A stretch of DNA of 64,000 nucleotides from a virus. Its lineage: Duplodnaviria; Caudoviricetes. The notes under the pieces are model-generated. The model saw only the letters and a list, made by a program, of their open reading frames with translations. It had not been told where the DNA came from and searched no databases. Shown here one piece after another: positions 4,836 through 39,010 of the stretch (its first letter is position 1; each line of letters starts with the position of its first letter). The position numbers and the translations under genes were made by a program. Location: the IMG/VR virus record IMGVR_UViG_3300035521_000139, positions 38,654-102,653 of that record, one strand, 5' to 3'.

Positions 4836-5094
4836 TTGACTTCTCCAGATTTTTTAAATATTTTTCTTTCTTCCTTACTAGTTTATCATAATCACAATAG
4901 AGTTTTCCTATATACGGAATACTAAAACTTGTATTGAGAGCTTCAAATTCTTGTTTTGTCAGATTCTCCTGAAGAGGTAAAGACTGAACTTTATCTTTAA
5001 TAAATCTCCAATAACTTTTATAAACTCGTCTTACCAATTCAGGAGAAATGTCTAACTCTATTGCTATATCTTTTACTATATCTGTATATTTCAC
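4816..5094 (-). CDS. HU/IHF-like DNA-binding protein
   Basis: DIVKDIAIELDISPELVRRVY helices plus FSIPYIGKLY strand, typical of the HU/IHF fold. Confidence 0.7.
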   Translation of the reverse strand: MKYTDIVKDIAIELDISPELVRRVYKSYWRFIKDKVQSLPLQENLTKQEFEALNTSFSIPYIGKLYCDYDKLVRKKEKYLKNLEKSNDTKKD

Positions 5095-5468
5095 GATAAC
5101 TCAAATAGAAATAATAAATTAAAAGTATTACTATTAGGATCTACGTTAGGTATAAATTTAGGATTAATTTTACCATCAATAATAATACCGCTTTTCCTTA
5201 ATTTACCTAAAATTACTTGAAAATGCTGGAGAGATATATTACACTCTTCCCTTACTTTTTTTCTAGTTTCTTCTCCTAGAGTAACTTGATCTAATATTTC
5301 TTCATTCTTTATTACCTTACTAAGCTCATATCTATGTTTTAAAAAACAAGATATTATATCTATTTCTCTTGAAGTTAATTTGTGGTAAGGGTATAAAAAC
5401 TCAAACCATCTTCTAAAGAACTTACCATTTAATGAAGTAGGTACTCTTATTACATTATTTGCTATCAT
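5091..5468 (-). CDS. Putative winged-helix DNA-binding protein
   Basis: LTSREIDII...KVREECNIS...QVILGKLRKSGII pattern. Confidence 0.55.
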   Translation of the reverse strand: MIANNVIRVPTSLNGKFFRRWFEFLYPYHKLTSREIDIISCFLKHRYELSKVIKNEEILDQVTLGEETRKKVREECNISLQHFQVILGKLRKSGIIIDGKINPKFIPNVDPNSNTFNLLFLFELS

Positions 5469-5485
5469 TTATACCCTTATTTAAA

Positions 5486-5773
5486 TTAATCATTTTCTTC
5501 TCCAGTAGAAGTAGTTTCAGTCTCTTCTTTAGTTTCTTCTTCAGGAGTCATTAATTCTTGAATCTCCTTAATACAACCGTCAAGGAATTCTTCTTCAAAT
5601 ACAGGAGCATTTTCAACAACCTTAAATAGATAATCAAGTCTTTTAAAAATATTGTTTAATGTTTTTAATTGACTATAAAGTTGATTGTTTTGTTCACTAA
5701 GCTGATGTGCAATTGCATTAAGTTTATCATAATCCAACTTTGCTTCCTTTTTTATTTCTTTGTTCTCTTCCAT
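5486..5773 (-). CDS. Hypothetical coiled-coil protein
   Basis: 95-aa ORF with heptad character and acidic tail. Confidence 0.7.
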   Translation of the reverse strand: MEENKEIKKEAKLDYDKLNAIAHQLSEQNNQLYSQLKTLNNIFKRLDYLFKVVENAPVFEEEFLDGCIKEIQELMTPEEETKEETETTSTGEEND

Positions 5774-5793
5774 TTTTTATTTATTTTAAATGA

Positions 5794-6009
5794 TTAATAT
5801 GATTCTAAATATTTATGATGAAATTTTCCTTCATATAGTTTATCCCACTCTGCATTAGATGTCTCCTCAATATTAGTAGCACCACATTTATTGCAAAATT
5901 CCATACCTGCAACTCCTATAATAGCTAAAGATAAACATCTTTTACAATAATGAACAGGTATTGCTTCAAAGTCTTCTTTGGTCAATTTTTCTTTATCAAA
6001 TTCTTCCAT
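5794..6009 (-). CDS. Small zinc-ribbon protein
   Basis: CKRC...CNKC. Confidence 0.7.
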   Translation of the reverse strand: MEEFDKEKLTKEDFEAIPVHYCKRCLSLAIIGVAGMEFCNKCGATNIEETSNAEWDKLYEGKFHHKYLESY

Positions 6010-22211: not shown

Positions 22212-23081
22212 ATGGCATTTGCAAGTGGTAAACAAACAGCAGATTCAGCTCCTATTAAGAGATATATTGGAGTAGCATCATCTTTCGTATTAGCAGTTAA
22301 TCCTAATAAAGCTAAATTATCGGAAATCTATGGTAGAGATATTACTGAAGAGCCTACTTATATAGGAAAGGATACTACTCTTAATGTAGATAATATTAGA
22401 ATAGATTTTATTCTAAAGACAGATCCTAAAAGTAACAATGGTATTGAGACTATTTCTAAGCTTTCTTATTATCTTTCTAATTCAGTAAGATATAATAGAG
22501 ATAAAACTAAAGTACAAGTAATTGATAAATATGGTAGAACTGCTTGGGCTACTATTGAAGAAGCTAAGAATCACACTGTTCCTCAATATTCCAAGGGTCC
22601 TGCTAATATTGATTCAGAGTTTAGACCTGCATTTGTAGGAGAAGAAAACCTTGTAAATTTTCTTATTAATTATCTTGGTATTCCCTCTACTGTTAAGCGT
22701 AATAGCGATAATTCCTATAGTCCTAAAACAGGTGCTGAATTAGCTGAGTGTGAGGCTGGTTTGGAGAATATTTCAGAGTATTTTAAAGGAAATATACAAG
22801 AACTTGTAGATATTGTTAATCTTCAACCTAATAATAAAGCGCAATTTCTTTATGGTGTTAAAACTACTGAAAAGGGACAATATCAAGATGTATTTAAAGA
22901 AATGGTATTAAAAAACAATGTTTATGATTGGAGTAAACTTACTGCTGCTCTTGAAGAAAGAAAAGCAGCAGGTGCTTATCCTAACACTGTATTTGATATT
23001 TGCTCTCTAAAGGAGTATGAGGTAGAAGCTGATACTTTTGAAAATCCTCCTTTGACAGCACACGATGATCTGCCTTGGTAA
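22212..23081 (+). CDS. Putative single-stranded DNA-binding protein
   Basis: Beta-rich protein with acidic DDLPW C-tail, between recombinase and primase. Confidence 0.65.
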   Translation: MAFASGKQTADSAPIKRYIGVASSFVLAVNPNKAKLSEIYGRDITEEPTYIGKDTTLNVDNIRIDFILKTDPKSNNGIETISKLSYYLSNSVRYNRDKTKVQVIDKYGRTAWATIEEAKNHTVPQYSKGPANIDSEFRPAFVGEENLVNFLINYLGIPSTVKRNSDNSYSPKTGAELAECEAGLENISEYFKGNIQELVDIVNLQPNNKAQFLYGVKTTEKGQYQDVFKEMVLKNNVYDWSKLTAALEERKAAGAYPNTVFDICSLKEYEVEADTFENPPLTAHDDLPW

Positions 23082-23111
23082 AAAAAATTAAATATATAAA
23101 ATAATCTAATT

Positions 23112-24119
23112 ATGGCATTTAGTACAGGATCTAGAACTACTAGAGTAGATGAGATTCTTACTCAAGTAACTGAAATTGATATATTATCATATTATTTAAA
23201 TGTGAAAGAGGTACCATGTGTTATTAATAGCCCTATAAGAGAGGATAAAAACCCCTCTCTTGGGCTTTATAGTACAGATGGTACTAAGATCCATTATATT
23301 GATTTCTCTACTGGAGAATCTGGAGGAACATTTGATTTATTGAGTAAGATGTGGGGAATGAAGTTCAAAGATGTATTGCTTCATATTGAAAAGGATTTAT
23401 GTCATTTTACTGTTAATAATAATATTAGAAAAAGTAATCCTTGTCTTGTAAGAAATATAAGTAATTATAAAAATGAATCTAAATTACTTTGTAAAACAAG
23501 AGATTGGGAGACTTACGATATTATTTATTGGGAGCAATTTGGCATTACTTTACAATGGCTTAAATATGCAGAAGTATATCCTATAAGTCATAAAATAATA
23601 ATAAAAAGAGGTAATAAATTTGTACTAGGTGCTGATAAATATGCTTATGTCTTTGTCGAGCATAAAGAAGATAAAGTTACTTTAAAAATATATCAGCCTT
23701 TTAACTCAAAAGGTTTTAAATGGTGTAATTCTCATGATAAATCTGTAATTGGCTTATGGACTAAAGTACCTAAAAATGGAGATAATATATGTATATGCTC
23801 TTCATTAAAAGATGCTTTATGTCTATGGGCTAATACAGGTATTCCTTCAGTATATATACAAGGAGAAGGATATAAAATCAGTAATACTGCAATTACTGAA
23901 TTAAAAAAAAGGTTTAAAACAATTTTTATATGTCTAGATAATGATAAACCTGGTTTAATAGATGCTGAAAGATTGGCAAAAGAAACTGGATTTATCAATG
24001 TGGTATTACCACAATTTGAAGGAGGAAAAGATATTGCAGAGTATTTTGTATTTCTTCAAAATAAAGAGAAGTTTAAAACTAATTTAATTAATTTATTTAA
24101 CAATCATTTAATAATTTAA
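23112..24119 (+). CDS. dnaG: DnaG-like primase
   Basis: Degenerate zinc-binding domain (SPIREDKNPS...DFSTG) and TOPRIM (LKDAL...CLDNDKPG...KDI). Confidence 0.85.
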   Translation: MAFSTGSRTTRVDEILTQVTEIDILSYYLNVKEVPCVINSPIREDKNPSLGLYSTDGTKIHYIDFSTGESGGTFDLLSKMWGMKFKDVLLHIEKDLCHFTVNNNIRKSNPCLVRNISNYKNESKLLCKTRDWETYDIIYWEQFGITLQWLKYAEVYPISHKIIIKRGNKFVLGADKYAYVFVEHKEDKVTLKIYQPFNSKGFKWCNSHDKSVIGLWTKVPKNGDNICICSSLKDALCLWANTGIPSVYIQGEGYKISNTAITELKKRFKTIFICLDNDKPGLIDAERLAKETGFINVVLPQFEGGKDIAEYFVFLQNKEKFKTNLINLFNNHLII

Positions 24120-24124
24120 AAAAA

Positions 24125-24874
24125 ATGGAATCACGTAAAATTACTGTAGTTTCATCAGCTACGCAATCTACAAAAGTTATTATGTCTTCAGCTACTACTC
24201 TGAGAGAATTGAAAGCAGATTTAGATGCTAATAATATTAGTTATGTTAATATGGCATTTTATGAGGGAACTGCAAGAGTAGAGCTTAAAACAGATGATTC
24301 AATATTGCCTCACGATGTTCCTTATAAAGGAACTATTACTAATGAACTGGTAATTATGCTATCATTACAAAAGAAGAAAATTAAATCAGGAGCTTATACT
24401 AGAGCAGATCTTTATTCTTTGATTAAAAAGTATCGTCTTCAAGATAAATGTATTTCTACTTTTAATAGAAATTATACACAATGTAAAACTGAAGATCTTA
24501 ATAAGATTGTAACTAGTTATATTAATAGTATTACTCCTTGTGCGGCTAACCCAATTGCCAGTAAGAAAGAAGAAGTTAAAGAAACTTCTAATGTAGAAAA
24601 TAAGAGTATTGAAACTAATTGCAAGCTGAAAGAAGAAATAGAGCTTAAAAATATTCGTAAAGATATTTTAAATATCAAGCAAGCTATTAATATTATAGCA
24701 AATGCACTTGAGGATGTTGAAGGTATTGAATACGTTTATGATGATGTCATGGAAGTTCTTGAAAGAGATGTAACTTCTATTGAAAGAAAAGATGTTGAAA
24801 TAAAAAAGAATCCTGTTCTCGAATCTCCATATTCAAAAGAGGATATTGATGATATGCTAAAAGACTTGATTTAA
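24125..24874 (+). CDS. Ubiquitin-like (beta-grasp) precursor protein
   Basis: Residues 1-89 follow beta-beta-alpha-beta-beta-beta order (RKITVV/TKVIM/TLRELKADL/MAFYE/DDSILP/LVIML), ending KIKSG; upstream of E2, JAB and E1 genes. Confidence 0.65.
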   Translation: MESRKITVVSSATQSTKVIMSSATTLRELKADLDANNISYVNMAFYEGTARVELKTDDSILPHDVPYKGTITNELVIMLSLQKKKIKSGAYTRADLYSLIKKYRLQDKCISTFNRNYTQCKTEDLNKIVTSYINSITPCAANPIASKKEEVKETSNVENKSIETNCKLKEEIELKNIRKDILNIKQAINIIANALEDVEGIEYVYDDVMEVLERDVTSIERKDVEIKKNPVLESPYSKEDIDDMLKDLI

Positions 24875-24890
24875 GGTTAATATATATTTT

Positions 24891-24921
24891 AAGGTAAGAG
24901 TATTATTACTCTTACCTTTTT
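24891..24921 (+). terminator. Intrinsic terminator between the Ubl and E2 genes
   Basis: AAGGTAAGAGTA-TTAT-TACTCTTACCTT plus T-run. Confidence 0.8.
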
Positions 24922-24964
24922 ATTCTAGTATTATTTAAGCTTTGTTATTTAAACATTATTAGAT

Positions 24965-26245
24965 ATGCAACTAAAATGCCCTATTTTATCTCCTGAATTA
25001 GATTCTGAAATAGAGAAACTATACAATAAAATTATAGAAGGTCCTTTAAAAGTATATGAAATATTTAAAGAATTTTATGGAGAAAACTTCGTAGATTTTC
25101 AAGGAGCAAAAACACTGGAAGATTTTAAACTTTACTTAGTAAAATCTGTTTTATATGTGCTTAAACATGAAATAACAGTAGATCCTTGTGATAAAGAGTA
25201 TATACAATATGAGGATTCTACTGAAACAATAATAGAATCTTTAAATAAATTCAATACTTATAATACAATTACCAATAACACTATAGGAAATTCTTATATA
25301 TTAGTTTATTTCCCAAAAGTAAGAGTTACTAATGAATATGATCATTTTGTAGATATTTCTAAATTCTTTGCAAAAATAAGCCTAACTACAGATGGTAGAT
25401 TAAAAGATAGTCCTAGATTTAATAGATCTGAATATACCCAAGCTCAGATTTTAAGTAGTTATATGCACAGTCACTTAAATGGTATTGATTTTTATAATCT
25501 ATCAACATTTAGATATGGTTGTTTAGGTACTGGTCCTATAGTACAGACTTGTAATAATCTTAAGAGAGAGTTTAATGAAAATCTTTGGGAATTATTTTGT
25601 TTTGAATTAAAAAATTATGTAGAAACAGAATCTGTTGCAGGTACTCCTTATATGCACTTGGAAAGAATAGGAAATTCAGAAGGAGGCGTCCCACTACACG
25701 ATTTCTGTGTGATAAACAAAGTTTTAAACTGTAGATTACTTAATTCTGAAGATAGAAGGGATTTCTTAGAATATCTTTTAAATAAGAAAGTATTAAAATT
25801 TAATTATTATAATAGTTCTTTTGGGATTGGAATGTCTTACTCTCAATACATGCTTTGTATAAGTAATGTGTTTATAGAATGGTATAATAAACAATATAAT
25901 GATAAAAAGATAAGTTTTTCATTCTCTAGATTAAAAGATGAAGGATTTATTTATGAAGGTTATATTAGTGAAAATAAAATTATAATACCTGATAATAGAA
26001 GAAGTATTAATAATTATAAACAATATATAGGGATTAAAATTTGTACTTTTAAAGGTAAAGATTATACATTTAATATTACTAATATTAAAGAAGAATCTAA
26101 AAATACTCTTTATTTTATAAATGATAAGTTTGCATTGTGGATATTAACGTCAATATTAAAAGTTTTAAATTTTAGATATGGAAGAAAAAGTAGCGAAAGT
26201 TCAGGAGACTCTACCGAAATTGAACCAGAAGTCATCTATTTATAA
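24965..26245 (+). CDS. Prokaryotic E2 (UBC-like) domain protein
   Basis: LVYFP...YMHSHL...GCLGTG (Cys186)...ES..GTPY resembles the E2 HPN...CL core; operon context. Confidence 0.6.
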   Translation: MQLKCPILSPELDSEIEKLYNKIIEGPLKVYEIFKEFYGENFVDFQGAKTLEDFKLYLVKSVLYVLKHEITVDPCDKEYIQYEDSTETIIESLNKFNTYNTITNNTIGNSYILVYFPKVRVTNEYDHFVDISKFFAKISLTTDGRLKDSPRFNRSEYTQAQILSSYMHSHLNGIDFYNLSTFRYGCLGTGPIVQTCNNLKREFNENLWELFCFELKNYVETESVAGTPYMHLERIGNSEGGVPLHDFCVINKVLNCRLLNSEDRRDFLEYLLNKKVLKFNYYNSSFGIGMSYSQYMLCISNVFIEWYNKQYNDKKISFSFSRLKDEGFIYEGYISENKIIIPDNRRSINNYKQYIGIKICTFKGKDYTFNITNIKEESKNTLYFINDKFALWILTSILKVLNFRYGRKSSESSGDSTEIEPEVIYL

Positions 26246-27362
26246 AATGATTATTCCTAAGGATGTAGAAAGTAAAATAAGATATACTTGCTCTAAAATT
26301 TCTAATATAGAGTGGTCGGGTATATTATTTTACACTTATGAAGGTAATTTTGAAGATGAGAGTCTTATCATTAGATGTGTAGACATCTTTATTATGGATA
26401 TTGGTACTACAGGATATACAGAATTTGAAATGAATCCTGATGTAATCAGTTATATGACAGAAAATCCTGAATTACTTAGTTGTAAAACAGGTTTAATTCA
26501 TTCTCATCATGAAATGAGTACTTTCTTTAGTCATACAGACACTTCTACTTTAGCATCTGAAGGTCATAGTACTAATAATTTTGTTTCTCTTATAGTAAAT
26601 AATGCAGGTACATATACTGCTGCTATTACTAGAAAAGTAAAATATATAAGAAATATTAATGAATTAGCTACTTATGAATTCTTTGATCAAGGTACTAAAA
26701 ATGCTCATAAAGAATACAAAGATATTCAAGATAATATTGAATGGTACTATCTTAAAATAGAGAAAGAAGGAGCTAATATATTTGAAGATATTCAAAATAG
26801 ATTAGATGAAATTCAAAAGTCTAAAGAAATTACTAAAATTAAACAACCAGAGTTAAGTTCTGAAAAGAGAGTTTTTCCAAAATTTAATATGGATGATGAG
26901 CCTACTTTGTTTGATGATTTAAATAAATCTAAGAAAGTATTAAATTCAATAAGTAATTGTATCAAGAAAGATAGCTTAAATACTTTAGAGAATATACAAG
27001 AAGAAGAATTAAAAAACTTTCATTTAAATGAAGATATACTTAAAGCATTTGTAGTTCAATTACTTACTGGAAGCTTATTTGTAGGAGTAGATAAATTAGA
27101 TATTGATAAATGGGTATCTAAGATGAAAGAGGTTTACTCTAGAAGATTTAAAAATGAAGAAAGCTTTAGTCAGTGGATATATACTTTTATTGACTATCTT
27201 ATATGGGAAATAGAAGATCCTGAATTAAGTAATTTAGGATTAAATAGTGATGAATTAGCCTATATTGTAGCTAATGATGCTATTAATGCTTTGAATAAAT
27301 TTCCACAAAATGTTTATATTAATGATATGATTGAACAACTTGAAAATTATTTAGTAATATGA
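26178..27362 (+). CDS. JAB/MPN (JAMM) metalloprotease
   Basis: EWSG plus exact HxH-x7-S-x2-D motif (HSHHEMSTFFSHTD). Confidence 0.9.
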   Translation: MEEKVAKVQETLPKLNQKSSIYKMIIPKDVESKIRYTCSKISNIEWSGILFYTYEGNFEDESLIIRCVDIFIMDIGTTGYTEFEMNPDVISYMTENPELLSCKTGLIHSHHEMSTFFSHTDTSTLASEGHSTNNFVSLIVNNAGTYTAAITRKVKYIRNINELATYEFFDQGTKNAHKEYKDIQDNIEWYYLKIEKEGANIFEDIQNRLDEIQKSKEITKIKQPELSSEKRVFPKFNMDDEPTLFDDLNKSKKVLNSISNCIKKDSLNTLENIQEEELKNFHLNEDILKAFVVQLLTGSLFVGVDKLDIDKWVSKMKEVYSRRFKNEESFSQWIYTFIDYLIWEIEDPELSNLGLNSDELAYIVANDAINALNKFPQNVYINDMIEQLENYLVI

Positions 27363-28240
27363 ATGAAAACAATGCAGCTATAAATGATGAATTATCATCA
27401 AATTTAACTCAAGAAGAAAATGAGCTACTAGTAGCAGCTACTGAAAGAGCTCATGAGGAAAATACCTCTACTGAAAATATTATTGAAGATAATCATGTTG
27501 AAATTCCAATTAATTCTGAAACATATAATATTGATGAAACTACCTCAAGATTTAGTTCGGCTACATGGTTTGAGGCTGTTCAACAAAAAACTATAATTCT
27601 TGCAGGATTAGGAGGAATAGGTAGTTTTGTTGCTTTTCTATTATCAAGAATGAAGCCTAAATCTTTATTCTTATATGATAATGATATAGTAGAAAGCAGT
27701 AATCTTTCAGGACAGCTATATAGAATGCAAGATATTAATGAACAAAAAGTAGATGCTATTAATTATTTTATAAGAAATTATTCTAATTACAATAGTGCTT
27801 TTAGTGTTCCGGAAAAGTTTTCTATATTTACAGAAGCTGCTGATATTATGATTTGTGGTTTTGATAATATGGAAGCAAGACAGACCTTCTTTAAAGTTTG
27901 GGAAAATCATGTTAGTCGTAAAGAGGATACTGATAGAAAGAATTGCTTACTTATTGATGGTAGATTAGCAGCAGAAGAATTTCAAATATTGTGTATCACA
28001 GGAGATGATACTTATAATATAAAAAGATATAAAACAGAATTCTTATTTAATGATTCTGAAGCTGATCAAACTATTTGTAGTTATAAGCAAACTTCATTTT
28101 GTGCTAGTATGATAGGTTCTATGATGGTTAATTTATTTGTTAATTTTATAGTTAATAATTTAAATCCAAATGTTCCTAGATATTTGCCTTTTTATACTTC
28201 TTATAATGCAGAAACTTTATATATTACAGCAGAACAATGA
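27359..28240 (+). CDS. ThiF/MoeB family E1-like activating enzyme
   Basis: GLGGIGS, DNDIVESSNLSGQ, CGFDNMEAR, IDGR, candidate catalytic Cys in TICSYKQ. Confidence 0.9.
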   Translation: MNENNAAINDELSSNLTQEENELLVAATERAHEENTSTENIIEDNHVEIPINSETYNIDETTSRFSSATWFEAVQQKTIILAGLGGIGSFVAFLLSRMKPKSLFLYDNDIVESSNLSGQLYRMQDINEQKVDAINYFIRNYSNYNSAFSVPEKFSIFTEAADIMICGFDNMEARQTFFKVWENHVSRKEDTDRKNCLLIDGRLAAEEFQILCITGDDTYNIKRYKTEFLFNDSEADQTICSYKQTSFCASMIGSMMVNLFVNFIVNNLNPNVPRYLPFYTSYNAETLYITAEQ

Positions 28241-28986
28241 ATTATTCATTATATAATACTTTTCTTAGTTTGTATTACAATGATTTTGACAAGGTTCCAG
28301 TACAAGAATATGGAATTAATCTAAATGATAATATTTGTTATCAAAGGTTTCTTCAAGTAGACTTAACTAAAGATTATATAGATATTCCTGTATTTGGTAA
28401 AGACTTAGTAGAAAGTCTGATGGTTGAAAAGCTAACCTATAATAAGAAAGTAAAAGCACTGGAAATACCTTTATTCTGTAGAAGTACAATAGTAAAAAAT
28501 ATGAAATCTGAAAAGATACTGGAGTCTTTTTTTAAGCGTAGTTTCAGTGATAGACTTTTAAAAATTGTTACTTTAACAGGAAAAACATATTATGGGGGAA
28601 AAGGAATTTTACTAGATTCTAATTATAATATAGTATTATTAGCTGTAGTAAGAGGTACTTGGAAGCTAAATGATACAAAAGGAATAAATTATAAACAATA
28701 CATAGTTAAACTTAGTCCAGATTTATTTTCAGAAAAGAAAGATGCTTTGTACAGATATATAGTAAATAAAGTAATGCCGTCATATATAGGACATGAAGTT
28801 AATACAGATTACTATAATAGAGGTATTAATAAATTATCATTAGAATCAAATAAAATAATATTTACAATTGAAAGTGATTTAAATAGGTATATTGTAAAAC
28901 CTAAAGTACCTAATATAAATACTACCAATGAAGATTATAATCAAGTACTTTTAGATAATATAGAGGACATTAAATTTTTATTATAA
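28237..28986 (+). CDS. Hypothetical protein coupled to E1
   Basis: ATGA overlap with the E1 stop; YYGGKGILLD segment. Confidence 0.7.
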   Translation: MNYSLYNTFLSLYYNDFDKVPVQEYGINLNDNICYQRFLQVDLTKDYIDIPVFGKDLVESLMVEKLTYNKKVKALEIPLFCRSTIVKNMKSEKILESFFKRSFSDRLLKIVTLTGKTYYGGKGILLDSNYNIVLLAVVRGTWKLNDTKGINYKQYIVKLSPDLFSEKKDALYRYIVNKVMPSYIGHEVNTDYYNRGINKLSLESNKIIFTIESDLNRYIVKPKVPNINTTNEDYNQVLLDNIEDIKFLL

Positions 28987-28990
28987 TAAT

Positions 28991-29512
28991 ATGAAAAGAA
29001 AATTTTATTTAAAAAACGGTGAAGAAGTAAATATTGGAGATATAATTGTTTCCGAGTACACTGAAGGTAATAGAAAGATTCATGAAGAAATTGAGATTAA
29101 TGATGATTCTATTCCTGAGTTGCTTCAAGATGAAATTATTCAAGTATCTTATGAAGATAATGCTCCTAAAAAGATTATTGAAGATCATTTAGCTTATTAT
29201 ATTATCAAACTAGCTGAAAGAAAAGGACTAAATTCTGAAGAAGTAGCTTGCATTTTAGATGATGTTGATAAACTTAATCCTTCAACTTCTTTTACTATTC
29301 TCCTAAAGGAGATTGCAATTGAATTTGATAAGAAATATTTAAATCATATTAGAAAATGTAAATCTATTTTTATAGTATCTTCAATTGATGGTAAAATTTA
29401 TAAAGTTGATAATGATATTAAGAACTTTAATAATTTTGCAGCATTTAGAACTAGGCAAGAAGCTGAAAGAGCATTGGAAATCTTGGAACCTGTATATAAA
29501 AATTTATTTTAG
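28991..29512 (+). CDS. Hypothetical protein
   Basis: 173-aa ORF ending in an AFRTRQEAERA motif. Confidence 0.7.
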   Translation: MKRKFYLKNGEEVNIGDIIVSEYTEGNRKIHEEIEINDDSIPELLQDEIIQVSYEDNAPKKIIEDHLAYYIIKLAERKGLNSEEVACILDDVDKLNPSTSFTILLKEIAIEFDKKYLNHIRKCKSIFIVSSIDGKIYKVDNDIKNFNNFAAFRTRQEAERALEILEPVYKNLF

Positions 29513-38565: not shown

Positions 38566-39010
38566 TATATACTTAGTAAAGAAAATTAAAGAAGTAGATA
38601 CTAAAAGAATTTCTAAAGCCTTTAGTAACACAGTTGCTAAATGCAATAATACTTGGGATTTAGAAGCTATACGTGATTTAGTTCAAGAAGAAATAGATAA
38701 TTTAGGTAAAGAAATTCATATTTGTAAAAGGTCTGCTGGATGGCAAATATTATTTCAACAGAATCCTCAATATGAATGTACTTTAAAGTCATTATTGAAT
38801 TTTATTAAAGCTTCTTTAGAATCAGGTGAATGGGAGCTTCTTGATGAGTATGGAGATTCTTATAGTATTGAAGAGCTTAAAGAAGATATAAAAAGCTTTA
38901 GTAAAGGATATACCCTAGAGTCTTATAATAAAGAAAAAGGAGGTTACAATCCTTATGAGCATGAATTTATTAATGATGGTTTAAGATGGGCTAAAAAAGA
39001 ATTTTGCTAA
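38555..39010 (+). CDS. Conserved phage hypothetical protein
   Basis: MGTNIY...HICKRSAGW...DEYG motif. Confidence 0.75.
   Translation: MGTNIYLVKKIKEVDTKRISKAFSNTVAKCNNTWDLEAIRDLVQEEIDNLGKEIHICKRSAGWQILFQQNPQYECTLKSLLNFIKASLESGEWELLDEYGDSYSIEELKEDIKSFSKGYTLESYNKEKGGYNPYEHEFINDGLRWAKKEFC

Follow-up and report, generated by a model that had tools for sequence, protein, structure and literature searches.

Bacterial ubiquitin-like (Ubl) protein conjugation has so far been viewed as anti-phage defense, the systems concerned being Bil, Bub, and type II CBASS. Processing of the tag has been shown experimentally in BilA, where a JAB peptidase cuts the Ubl precursor after a conserved Gly and removes a short extension (PMC10557695), and in BubAB, where a fusion is cleaved after Gly (PMC11601596). 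Here, we describe a locus in which it is the phage side that owns the kit. The DNA analyzed (the window) is a stretch of 64,000 nucleotides, positions 38,654 to 102,653 of IMG/VR record IMGVR_UViG_3300035521_000139 (Duplodnaviria; Caudoviricetes), and it carries a cassette of four consecutive genes for a Ubl precursor, an E2-like protein, a JAB/JAMM metallopeptidase, and a minimal E1-like adenylating enzyme. We think it probable that this cassette is a phage-run Ubl conjugation pathway that operates through cysteine thioesters.

The following observations support conjugation: all four component types are present, with invariant cysteines in the E1 (Cys240) and the E2-like protein (Cys186); the gene order is fixed and the reading frames overlap; and a stand-alone form of the Ubl, split naturally at its Ser-Gly (SG) end, supports cleavage after Gly89. 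If the reading is true, no bacterial virus would have been shown before to own such a pathway, which would mirror the host Bil defense. The kit is a fixed part of the replication module in a large family of crAss-like phages, which are among the most abundant human gut viruses. An E2-like family with no named relative and an E1 without a supposedly essential Arg would offer new material on E2 and E1 evolution, the natural split at SG is a genetic clue to the end of the tag, and the presence of the cassette in cultured phages makes the proposal testable now.

Proposed pathway

In the pathway that we propose, the tag would be made as a precursor, probably in excess of the enzymes, in which the Ubl (residues 1 to 89) is joined to a helical part that ends in an acidic tail. 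The JAMM peptidase would cut after Gly89 (residues 84 to 90, KKIKSG/A, with the slash at the cut), giving two products, a Ubl that ends in Gly and a C-terminal protein. The small ThiF/UBA5-type E1 would then adenylate Gly89 and load the Ubl on its crossover-loop Cys240, and the Ubl would be handed to Cys186 of the UBC-like protein, whose C-terminal domain, rather than an E3, would pick the target lysine; the JAB may also reverse the mark. Cleavage, adenylation, thioesters, and conjugation are alike inferred. Since the cassette lies in the replication module, its targets may be proteins of the replisome or of host DNA metabolism. As to the wider claim that Steigviridae and some Flavobacterium phages encode and operate a full E1/E2-thioester cascade that tags host or phage proteins during infection, most plausibly at the replisome or DNA, and so drives the phage cycle, we put its chances at about even.

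The Ubl precursor and its natural split

The Ubl forms a large family (2,642 clusters at 90% identity) in which residues 1 to 89 are nearly invariant and end in a basic tail, KK(I/V)xSG, with Gly89 invariant even in the distant Flavobacterium phage Fpv3 (Fipvunavirus). The precursor has no meaningful match in Pfam, PHROGs, PADLOC, or NCBIfam, and its fold was read from structural models. The Atlas model of the Ubl has ubiquitin, SAMP2/ThiS, DWNN, and RBD as structural neighbors, and a Foldseek search with an AlphaFold2 (AF2) model of moderate confidence returns nearly only ubiquitin-fold chains, most of the neighbors being ubiquitin, ISG15, and SUMO rather than ThiS or MoaD. When the whole precursor is used, the structural search is dominated by its long helix and the beta-grasp is visible only on a second look. 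The earlier claim that this open reading frame (ORF), starting at 24125, encodes a beta-grasp protein is borne out for its N-terminal domain in these models.

A sulfur carrier could have the same parts: a ThiS/MoaD/CysO/QbsE-like Ubl would be trimmed by the JAB and adenylated by the E1, and its thiocarboxylate would serve nucleotide, DNA, or cofactor modification. We hold this to be the least likely of the alternatives considered here, although SAMP2/ThiS are among the structural neighbors and the best NCBIfam matches of the E1 are ThiF models, far under their cut-offs. In sulfur carriers, a two-residue extension is trimmed by a JAB, as in QbsE/QbsD. Sulfur clusters of JAB, E1, and Ubl are on record (PMC1779556). 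However, the tail is x-S-G and not G-G, most of the Ubl neighbors are not ThiS or MoaD, and a sulfur relay would leave the UBC-like protein with its invariant Cys without a function. Furthermore, the complete phage genome is without rhodanese, cysteine desulfurase, or PP-loop thiolase or ATPase, which extends to the whole genome the earlier statement that no sulfur-transfer genes lie nearby.

After Gly89, the precursor continues with three short helices (residues 93 to 135, HeH-like by eye), a variable Ala/Pro/Lys/Glu linker, a long helix (residues 158 to 196), and a tail with the invariant acidic motif SPYSxxEIDxM (24824-24856); no Pfam family matches this C-terminal part. In Kolpuevirus, the linker holds an inserted C-terminal domain of ribosomal protein L7/L12 (PF00542, E = 5e-12, above the cut-off; L002:3999-4925 in cr126_1, also L073 and L080), which is odd for a replication-module protein and may point to contact of the released C-terminal fragment with translation GTPases.

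New in the present analysis is a set of loci in which a homing-endonuclease gene splits the Ubl gene just after SG. In L015, L059, and L060, as well as in clusters P0366-P0370 (one of them on a 100.9-kb contig), the Ubl gene ends two codons past SG and encodes a stand-alone protein of 91 residues with the post-SG ending IC, KF, or IY. A NUMOD4-HNH_3-NUMOD1 homing endonuclease gene comes next, followed by the C-terminal part as an ORF of its own, with the E2, JAB, and E1 genes intact alongside. An undetected group I intron was rejected as an explanation of the split, since Rfam finds no intron there, while the same search, as a positive control, does detect group I introns where the JAB and E1 genes of L057 and L063 are interrupted. 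We thus observe directly that SG marks a natural domain boundary, and SG is the likely JAB cleavage site: the split indicates that each half of the precursor can function as a protein by itself, and the point of separation is directly past the Gly at which cleavage is proposed.

The same precursor could be processed and activated without any conjugation. The beta-grasp would then be a cleavable folding or solubility module of a C-terminal, replication-associated protein, the E1 would activate its carboxylate for some other end, and the Cys/His protein would be an adaptor, a target, or an unrelated enzyme. A cleavable-module role has been proposed for TAPI/TAPK of phage lambda, and phage pairs of Ubl and JAB without E1 or E2 are known (Iyer et al. 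2006, PMC1779556). The C-terminal part, conserved and ending in an invariant acidic tail, does resemble a protein with a function of its own, and the E2 call (see below) is weak at every single match. We nevertheless consider this reading unlikely: it leaves the invariant Cys of the E1 crossover loop and that of the UBC-like protein without a role, the four genes are inseparable in the loci examined, and the split forms keep a free-standing Ubl beside JAB and E1, which makes the Ubl more than a folding aid.

The E1-like enzyme and the JAMM peptidase

With respect to the enzymes expected in a conjugation pathway, membership of the E1-like protein in the ThiF family is solid. It matches Pfam ThiF (PF00899) over residues 72 to 282 with 64.5 bits against a cut-off of 28.1 (E = 1.1e-17) and PHROGs family phrog_15670 at 1e-38. 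A profile of 15 diverse members, searched against the PDB, has UBA5 as its best solved relative (1.2e-12), followed by MccB, PaaA, TcdA, ThiF, UBA6, and MoeB, so that the earlier ThiF/E1 assignment is sound. In the PADLOC library, the protein matches Cap2 models with E values down to 4e-12 and BilD at 8e-6 over residues 78 to 177, the Rossmann part only, and the similarity to UBA5 is likewise confined to the N-terminal Rossmann half.

The N-terminus of the E1 is variable and acidic. The motifs that follow are Arg64 (in T-S-R-F-S), G83xGGxG (G83-L-G-G-I-G; 27605-27622), D107xD, N115-L-S-G118-Q, K130, D169-N, and the putative catalytic Cys240 of the crossover loop (C240-S-Y-K-Q-T; codon at 28076-28078). 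The nucleotide-site residues R64, G83xGGxG, D107, K130, and D169-N170 do not vary among 18 members and Fpv3; R174 and C240-x-x-K-Q-T are invariant too, and Cys240 lies 31 residues past the E-x-x-Q strand. Judging by spacing, Cys240 may be the counterpart of UBA5 C250 and MoeB C187, HMMER having left that half unaligned.

The JAB assignment is solid by its invariant motif. An MPN domain (about residues 24 to 155) is followed by a helical C-terminal half. The JAMM motif consists of Glu45 (26310-26312) and H108-S-H110-x7-S118-x2-D121 (26499-26540), and E45, H108, H110, S118, and D121 are invariant in 18 members and in Fpv3, which makes the earlier claim of a protease with an exact JAMM motif a sound one. 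Pfam Prok-JAB is matched over residues 31 to 142 with 20.5 bits, below the 25-bit cut-off (E = 4.5e-4), the PADLOC JAB model at E = 0.13, and phrog_21448 at 3e-12. Met24 was rejected as the start of the protein, since the start at ME.., which overlaps the E2 gene, is kept in all members.

The E2-like protein and the points against conjugation

The E2-like protein comprises a UBC-like core (about residues 10 to 237) with a helical insert (residues 51 to 106) and a unique C-terminal domain (about residues 240 to 407). Its model, from a 52-sequence alignment, is confident (predicted local distance difference test score, 86), and at least 32 of its 50 best structural matches are UBC, UEV, or RWD chains. 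Each of these matches is weak, every Z lying within the range that the tool calls common, and for that reason the UBC argument rests on enrichment and not on a single score. The modeled secondary structure runs from a long helix and a strand through the helical insert to three strands, a loop, and two helices, an order that would be compatible with a UBC core plus insert. Within it, the putative catalytic Cys186 (C186-L-G; codon at 25520-25522) lies between strand 151-158 and helix 191-201, and Y-x-H-S-H (Y166-M-H-S-H170, with H168-S-H170 at 25466-25474) and C186-x-G occupy the loop that in E2s holds H-P-N and the catalytic Cys. H168, H170, and C186 are invariant, Fpv3 included. The original prediction had judged this protein by eye to have an E2 fold, and a UBC-like model and an invariant Cys186 are indeed what we find. 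The motifs that it named across the four proteins (KIKSG, H-S-H/C186-L-G, JAMM, GxGxxG, SNLxxQ, and the C-terminal Cys) were all located in residue checks.

Relatives of the E2-like protein are found among phages. The six structural relatives in BFVD are all uncharacterized phage proteins, down to 12 to 15% identity, and in a profile search of representatives, the best 150 of 2,879 clusters were all close phage relatives. The protein has nothing meaningful in PHROGs, PADLOC, or NCBIfam, and a Foldseek search of its model against the PDB gives nothing at E ≤ 0.001, with winged-helix and unrelated chains in the top rows. The sole match of its profile to PDB sequences (YbbR, E = 0.06) was treated as noise. 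The C-terminal 190 residues show weak structural matches, and we suggest that this domain may serve target choice.

Several points weigh against a conjugation pathway. The E2-like protein has no match to Pfam UQ_con, Prok-E2, RWD, or UEV (E ≤ 1), and the BilB model finds nothing genome-wide (E ≤ 10). It has H-S-H instead of H-P-N, 16 residues ahead of Cys186, and the H-P-N of E2s lies about 8 residues ahead of the Cys; His168, His170, and Cys186 could be a metal site in place of a thioester site. Noncanonical bacterial E2s are also without H-P-N (PMC1779556, PMC10557695, PMC11601596). In the Ubl, the AF2 model has low confidence at residues 64 to 89, that is, in the last strand and the tail. 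In the E1 family, the canonical Arg of N-L-x-R-Q is replaced by the invariant Gly118 (N-L/M-S/A/G-G-Q; window 27701-27715), which HMMER pairs with the Arg of UBA5 N-M-N-R-L. To our knowledge, the well-studied E1-like enzymes all carry this ATP-binding Arg. The earlier claim that the phage may have its own protein-tagging system is partly supported: components, folds, motifs, and synteny agree with it, and this part of the E1 ATP site does not, while conjugation, its targets, and a counter-defense role are putative.

Conservation and distribution

The gene order is fixed: primase, Ubl, E2, JAB, E1, and a fifth gene follow each other in all 80 IMG/VR loci wherever the flank suffices, and the same order is observed in Steigviridae references, including the cultured crAss001, and in Dulem virus 41. 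In Fpv3, the order from primase to E1 is kept, and all four cassette genes are recovered by family hidden Markov models (E = 6e-16, 9e-24, 3e-48, and 5e-56), with the putative catalytic residues, including E1 C240 and E2 C186, retained at 15 to 35% identity. This four-gene conservation is far more than expected by chance.

Among 185,579 species genomes, scanned with patterns that reach close relatives only, the E2-like family is found on 8 loci, all of them contigs of metagenome-assembled genomes. These loci look like binned phage DNA: five of the eight are on contigs of 88 to 120 kb, and one is on the same contig as viral locus L018. Cultured phages with the cassette are crAss001, DAC15, the PhiCrAssBcn series, and FpV4-type Flavobacterium phages. 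In public phage records, the E1 is mostly labeled "thiamine biosynthesis protein", which is an annotation issue, and once "E1 enzyme family protein", while the tag and the transfer enzyme are "hypothetical". A full-text literature search, thin on subscription journals, found no description of the cassette.

This fixity also bears on whether the enzymes mainly act on host Bil, Bub, or type II CBASS. In such counter-defense, the JAB could remove conjugates of host Ubl or cGAS from proteins of the phage or the host, or the Ubl, E1, and E2 could be decoys or competing modifiers. CBASS Cap2 models, plus BilD, are the best matches of the E1 in the defense library, the gene order mirrors BilABCD (PMC10557695), and Bil tags a phage tail fiber protein (PMC10557695, PMC11601596). 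Against this, the cassette has a constant place in the replication module family-wide and is core-like, unlike the variable genes typical of anti-defense, which favors a function within the phage's own cycle; it includes a tag gene, for which simple deconjugation has no need; and no sequence similarity to BilA, BilB, or BilC is seen (PADLOC models). A counter-defense role as the main one is, in our view, improbable, slightly more so than processing without conjugation, and it concerns the purpose of the cassette rather than its chemistry, so that it is compatible with a phage-run conjugation pathway. The link to CBASS and Bil that had been drawn for this locus holds as an analogy but not as family membership, given the lack of a BilB match and the partial match to BilD (E = 8e-6). 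Of 401 bacterial genomes sampled for BilB, none has a match, and for Cap2 there are three matches, all of them partial and confined to the E1.

The block is also an insertion hot spot. Group I introns (RF00028, 66 to 97 bits) are found at L057:7550-8650, L057:9900-10990, and L063:7488-8590; in L057 and L063, an intron lies inside the JAMM motif of the JAB gene, in L057 another lies inside GxGGIG of the E1 gene, and each L057 interruption holds an endonuclease-like ORF. Introns homing into the most conserved codons suggest that these genes matter to the phage. Past the 3' end of the cassette, L015 has another group I intron (L015:11112-11355, 84.8 bits). HNH homing-endonuclease genes (L015:4034-4588 and 4897-5409, L019:4036-4584 and 5383-5922, and L028:5381-5920) are inserted in the spacers between primase and Ubl, between Ubl and C-terminal part, and between Ubl gene and E2; L015:4897-5409 was assigned by Pfam (NUMOD4-HNH_3-NUMOD1) and the others by eye.

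Layout and gene neighborhood

The virus record is complete, spans 102,653 bp, and has direct terminal repeats; the window covers its right 64 kb. With about 27% G+C, the window is AT-rich, and its nearest named relatives are crAss-like phages of the Steigviridae, e.g., crAss001 and cr126_1. The gene anatomy is observed directly (Table 1), and the four co-oriented, consecutive ORFs have exactly the coordinates first claimed for them. Gene overlaps measure 68 nt (E2/JAB), 4 nt (JAB/E1), and 4 nt (E1/fifth gene). On the + strand of 22900-29200, the hairpin between the Ubl and E2 genes is the sole terminator-like site, and in relatives the Ubl-E2 spacers of at least 53 nt fold at -17 to -31 kcal/mol. 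As the hairpin follows the Ubl gene, the Ubl is probably made in excess of the enzymes.

Table 1. Features of the cassette, in window coordinates
Feature	Coordinates	Strand	Basis or remark
Ubl precursor gene	24125-24874	+	ORF call; 249 residues
Ubl domain (precursor residues 1-89)	24125-24391	+	Beta-grasp; end K84-K-I-K-S-G89
C-terminal part of precursor (residues 90-249)	24392-24874	+	Alignments; model secondary structure
Terminator-like hairpin, spacer between Ubl and E2 genes	24891-24928	+	12-bp stem, 4-nt loop, T run
E2-like protein (426 residues)	24965-26245	+	UBC-like model; no sequence family
JAB/JAMM metallopeptidase (394 residues)	26178-27362	+	JAMM motif; weak Prok-JAB match
Minimal E1-like adenylating enzyme (293 residues)	27359-28240	+	ThiF match
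Fifth gene (249 residues)	28237-28986	+	4-nt overlap with E1 gene; putative member of the system

The 5' neighbor of the cassette is a DnaG-type primase (Toprim plus Zn ribbon), and on the 3' side we observe, in order, the unassigned fifth gene, a weak resolvase match, a PD-(D/E)XK exonuclease, and NrdD, in agreement with the primase and nuclease flanks described before. The fifth gene adjoins the cassette in 78 of 82 loci and is a possible accessory or target; it has no family, no confident fold, and no usable structural match in the Atlas, and the gene at its position in Fpv3 is nonhomologous. In crAss001, cr126_1, cr111_1, and cr128_1, the fifth gene is followed by a uracil-DNA glycosylase, which in the window is replaced by a 173-residue ORF (28991-29512) without a Pfam or PHROG match.

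Comparison with known systems

The one earlier phage example is the TAPI (Ubl) and TAPK (JAB-NlpC/P60) pair of phages lambda and T1, which shares with the cassette a Ubl with a C-terminal Gly, a C-terminal fusion, and a JAB partner; it has neither E1 nor E2 and acts in tail assembly, not in replication (PMC1779556). Type II CBASS is a bacterial system in which Cap2 is an E2-E1 fusion and no Ubl takes part, the C-terminus of the CD-NTase being what is conjugated. Type I Bub (BubAB/BubCD/BubE, formerly 6E.1; Ye et al. 2024, PMC11601596) has in common with the cassette a minimal E1 and a precursor made by fusion. However, its chemistry uses Tyr/Ser oxyesters without catalytic cysteines, whereas the cassette has the invariant Cys240 and Cys186, in line with canonical ubiquitin chemistry, and the Bub Ubl is fused to the E2, which is not the fusion partner here. 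DUF6527/BubE is absent from the phage genome (E ≤ 1).

In the eukaryotic UBA5-UFM1-UFC1 pathway, UBA5 is the nearest solved relative of the phage E1, both enzymes being minimal and without a separate Cys domain, and UFM1 and UFC1 are among the weak structural matches of the cassette proteins. The tail of UFM1 is x-Gly rather than Gly-Gly and carries a two-residue extension, which resembles the split phage Ubls. UFMylation differs in that Cys proteases (UfSP) rather than a JAB process the tag and in that an E3 complex is needed.

Bil (BilABCD, types I and II; class 6d/6C of Iyer et al. 2006) has the same order of Ubl, E2, JAB, and E1 as four separate proteins, and likewise a conserved Ubl Gly with extra residues that the JAB removes, no E3, and Cys chemistry (PMC10557695), the removal and the chemistry being proposed ones in the cassette. 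PADLOC Bil models give no match to the Ubl, E2, or JAB of the phage, and in the sequence-based membership tests made, the cassette fails to group with either Bil or Bub. The Bil E1 has the architecture IAD-AAD-CYS, whereas that of the cassette has one adenylation domain only, about 230 residues long; the Bil E2 has its His after the Cys, whereas the 426-residue E2-like protein has H-S-H before it and a large extra domain; and the extension after the Gly, unlike that of Bil, is a conserved protein of 160 residues. Finally, Bil is a bacterial system directed against phages, whereas the cassette is encoded by the phage within its replication module.

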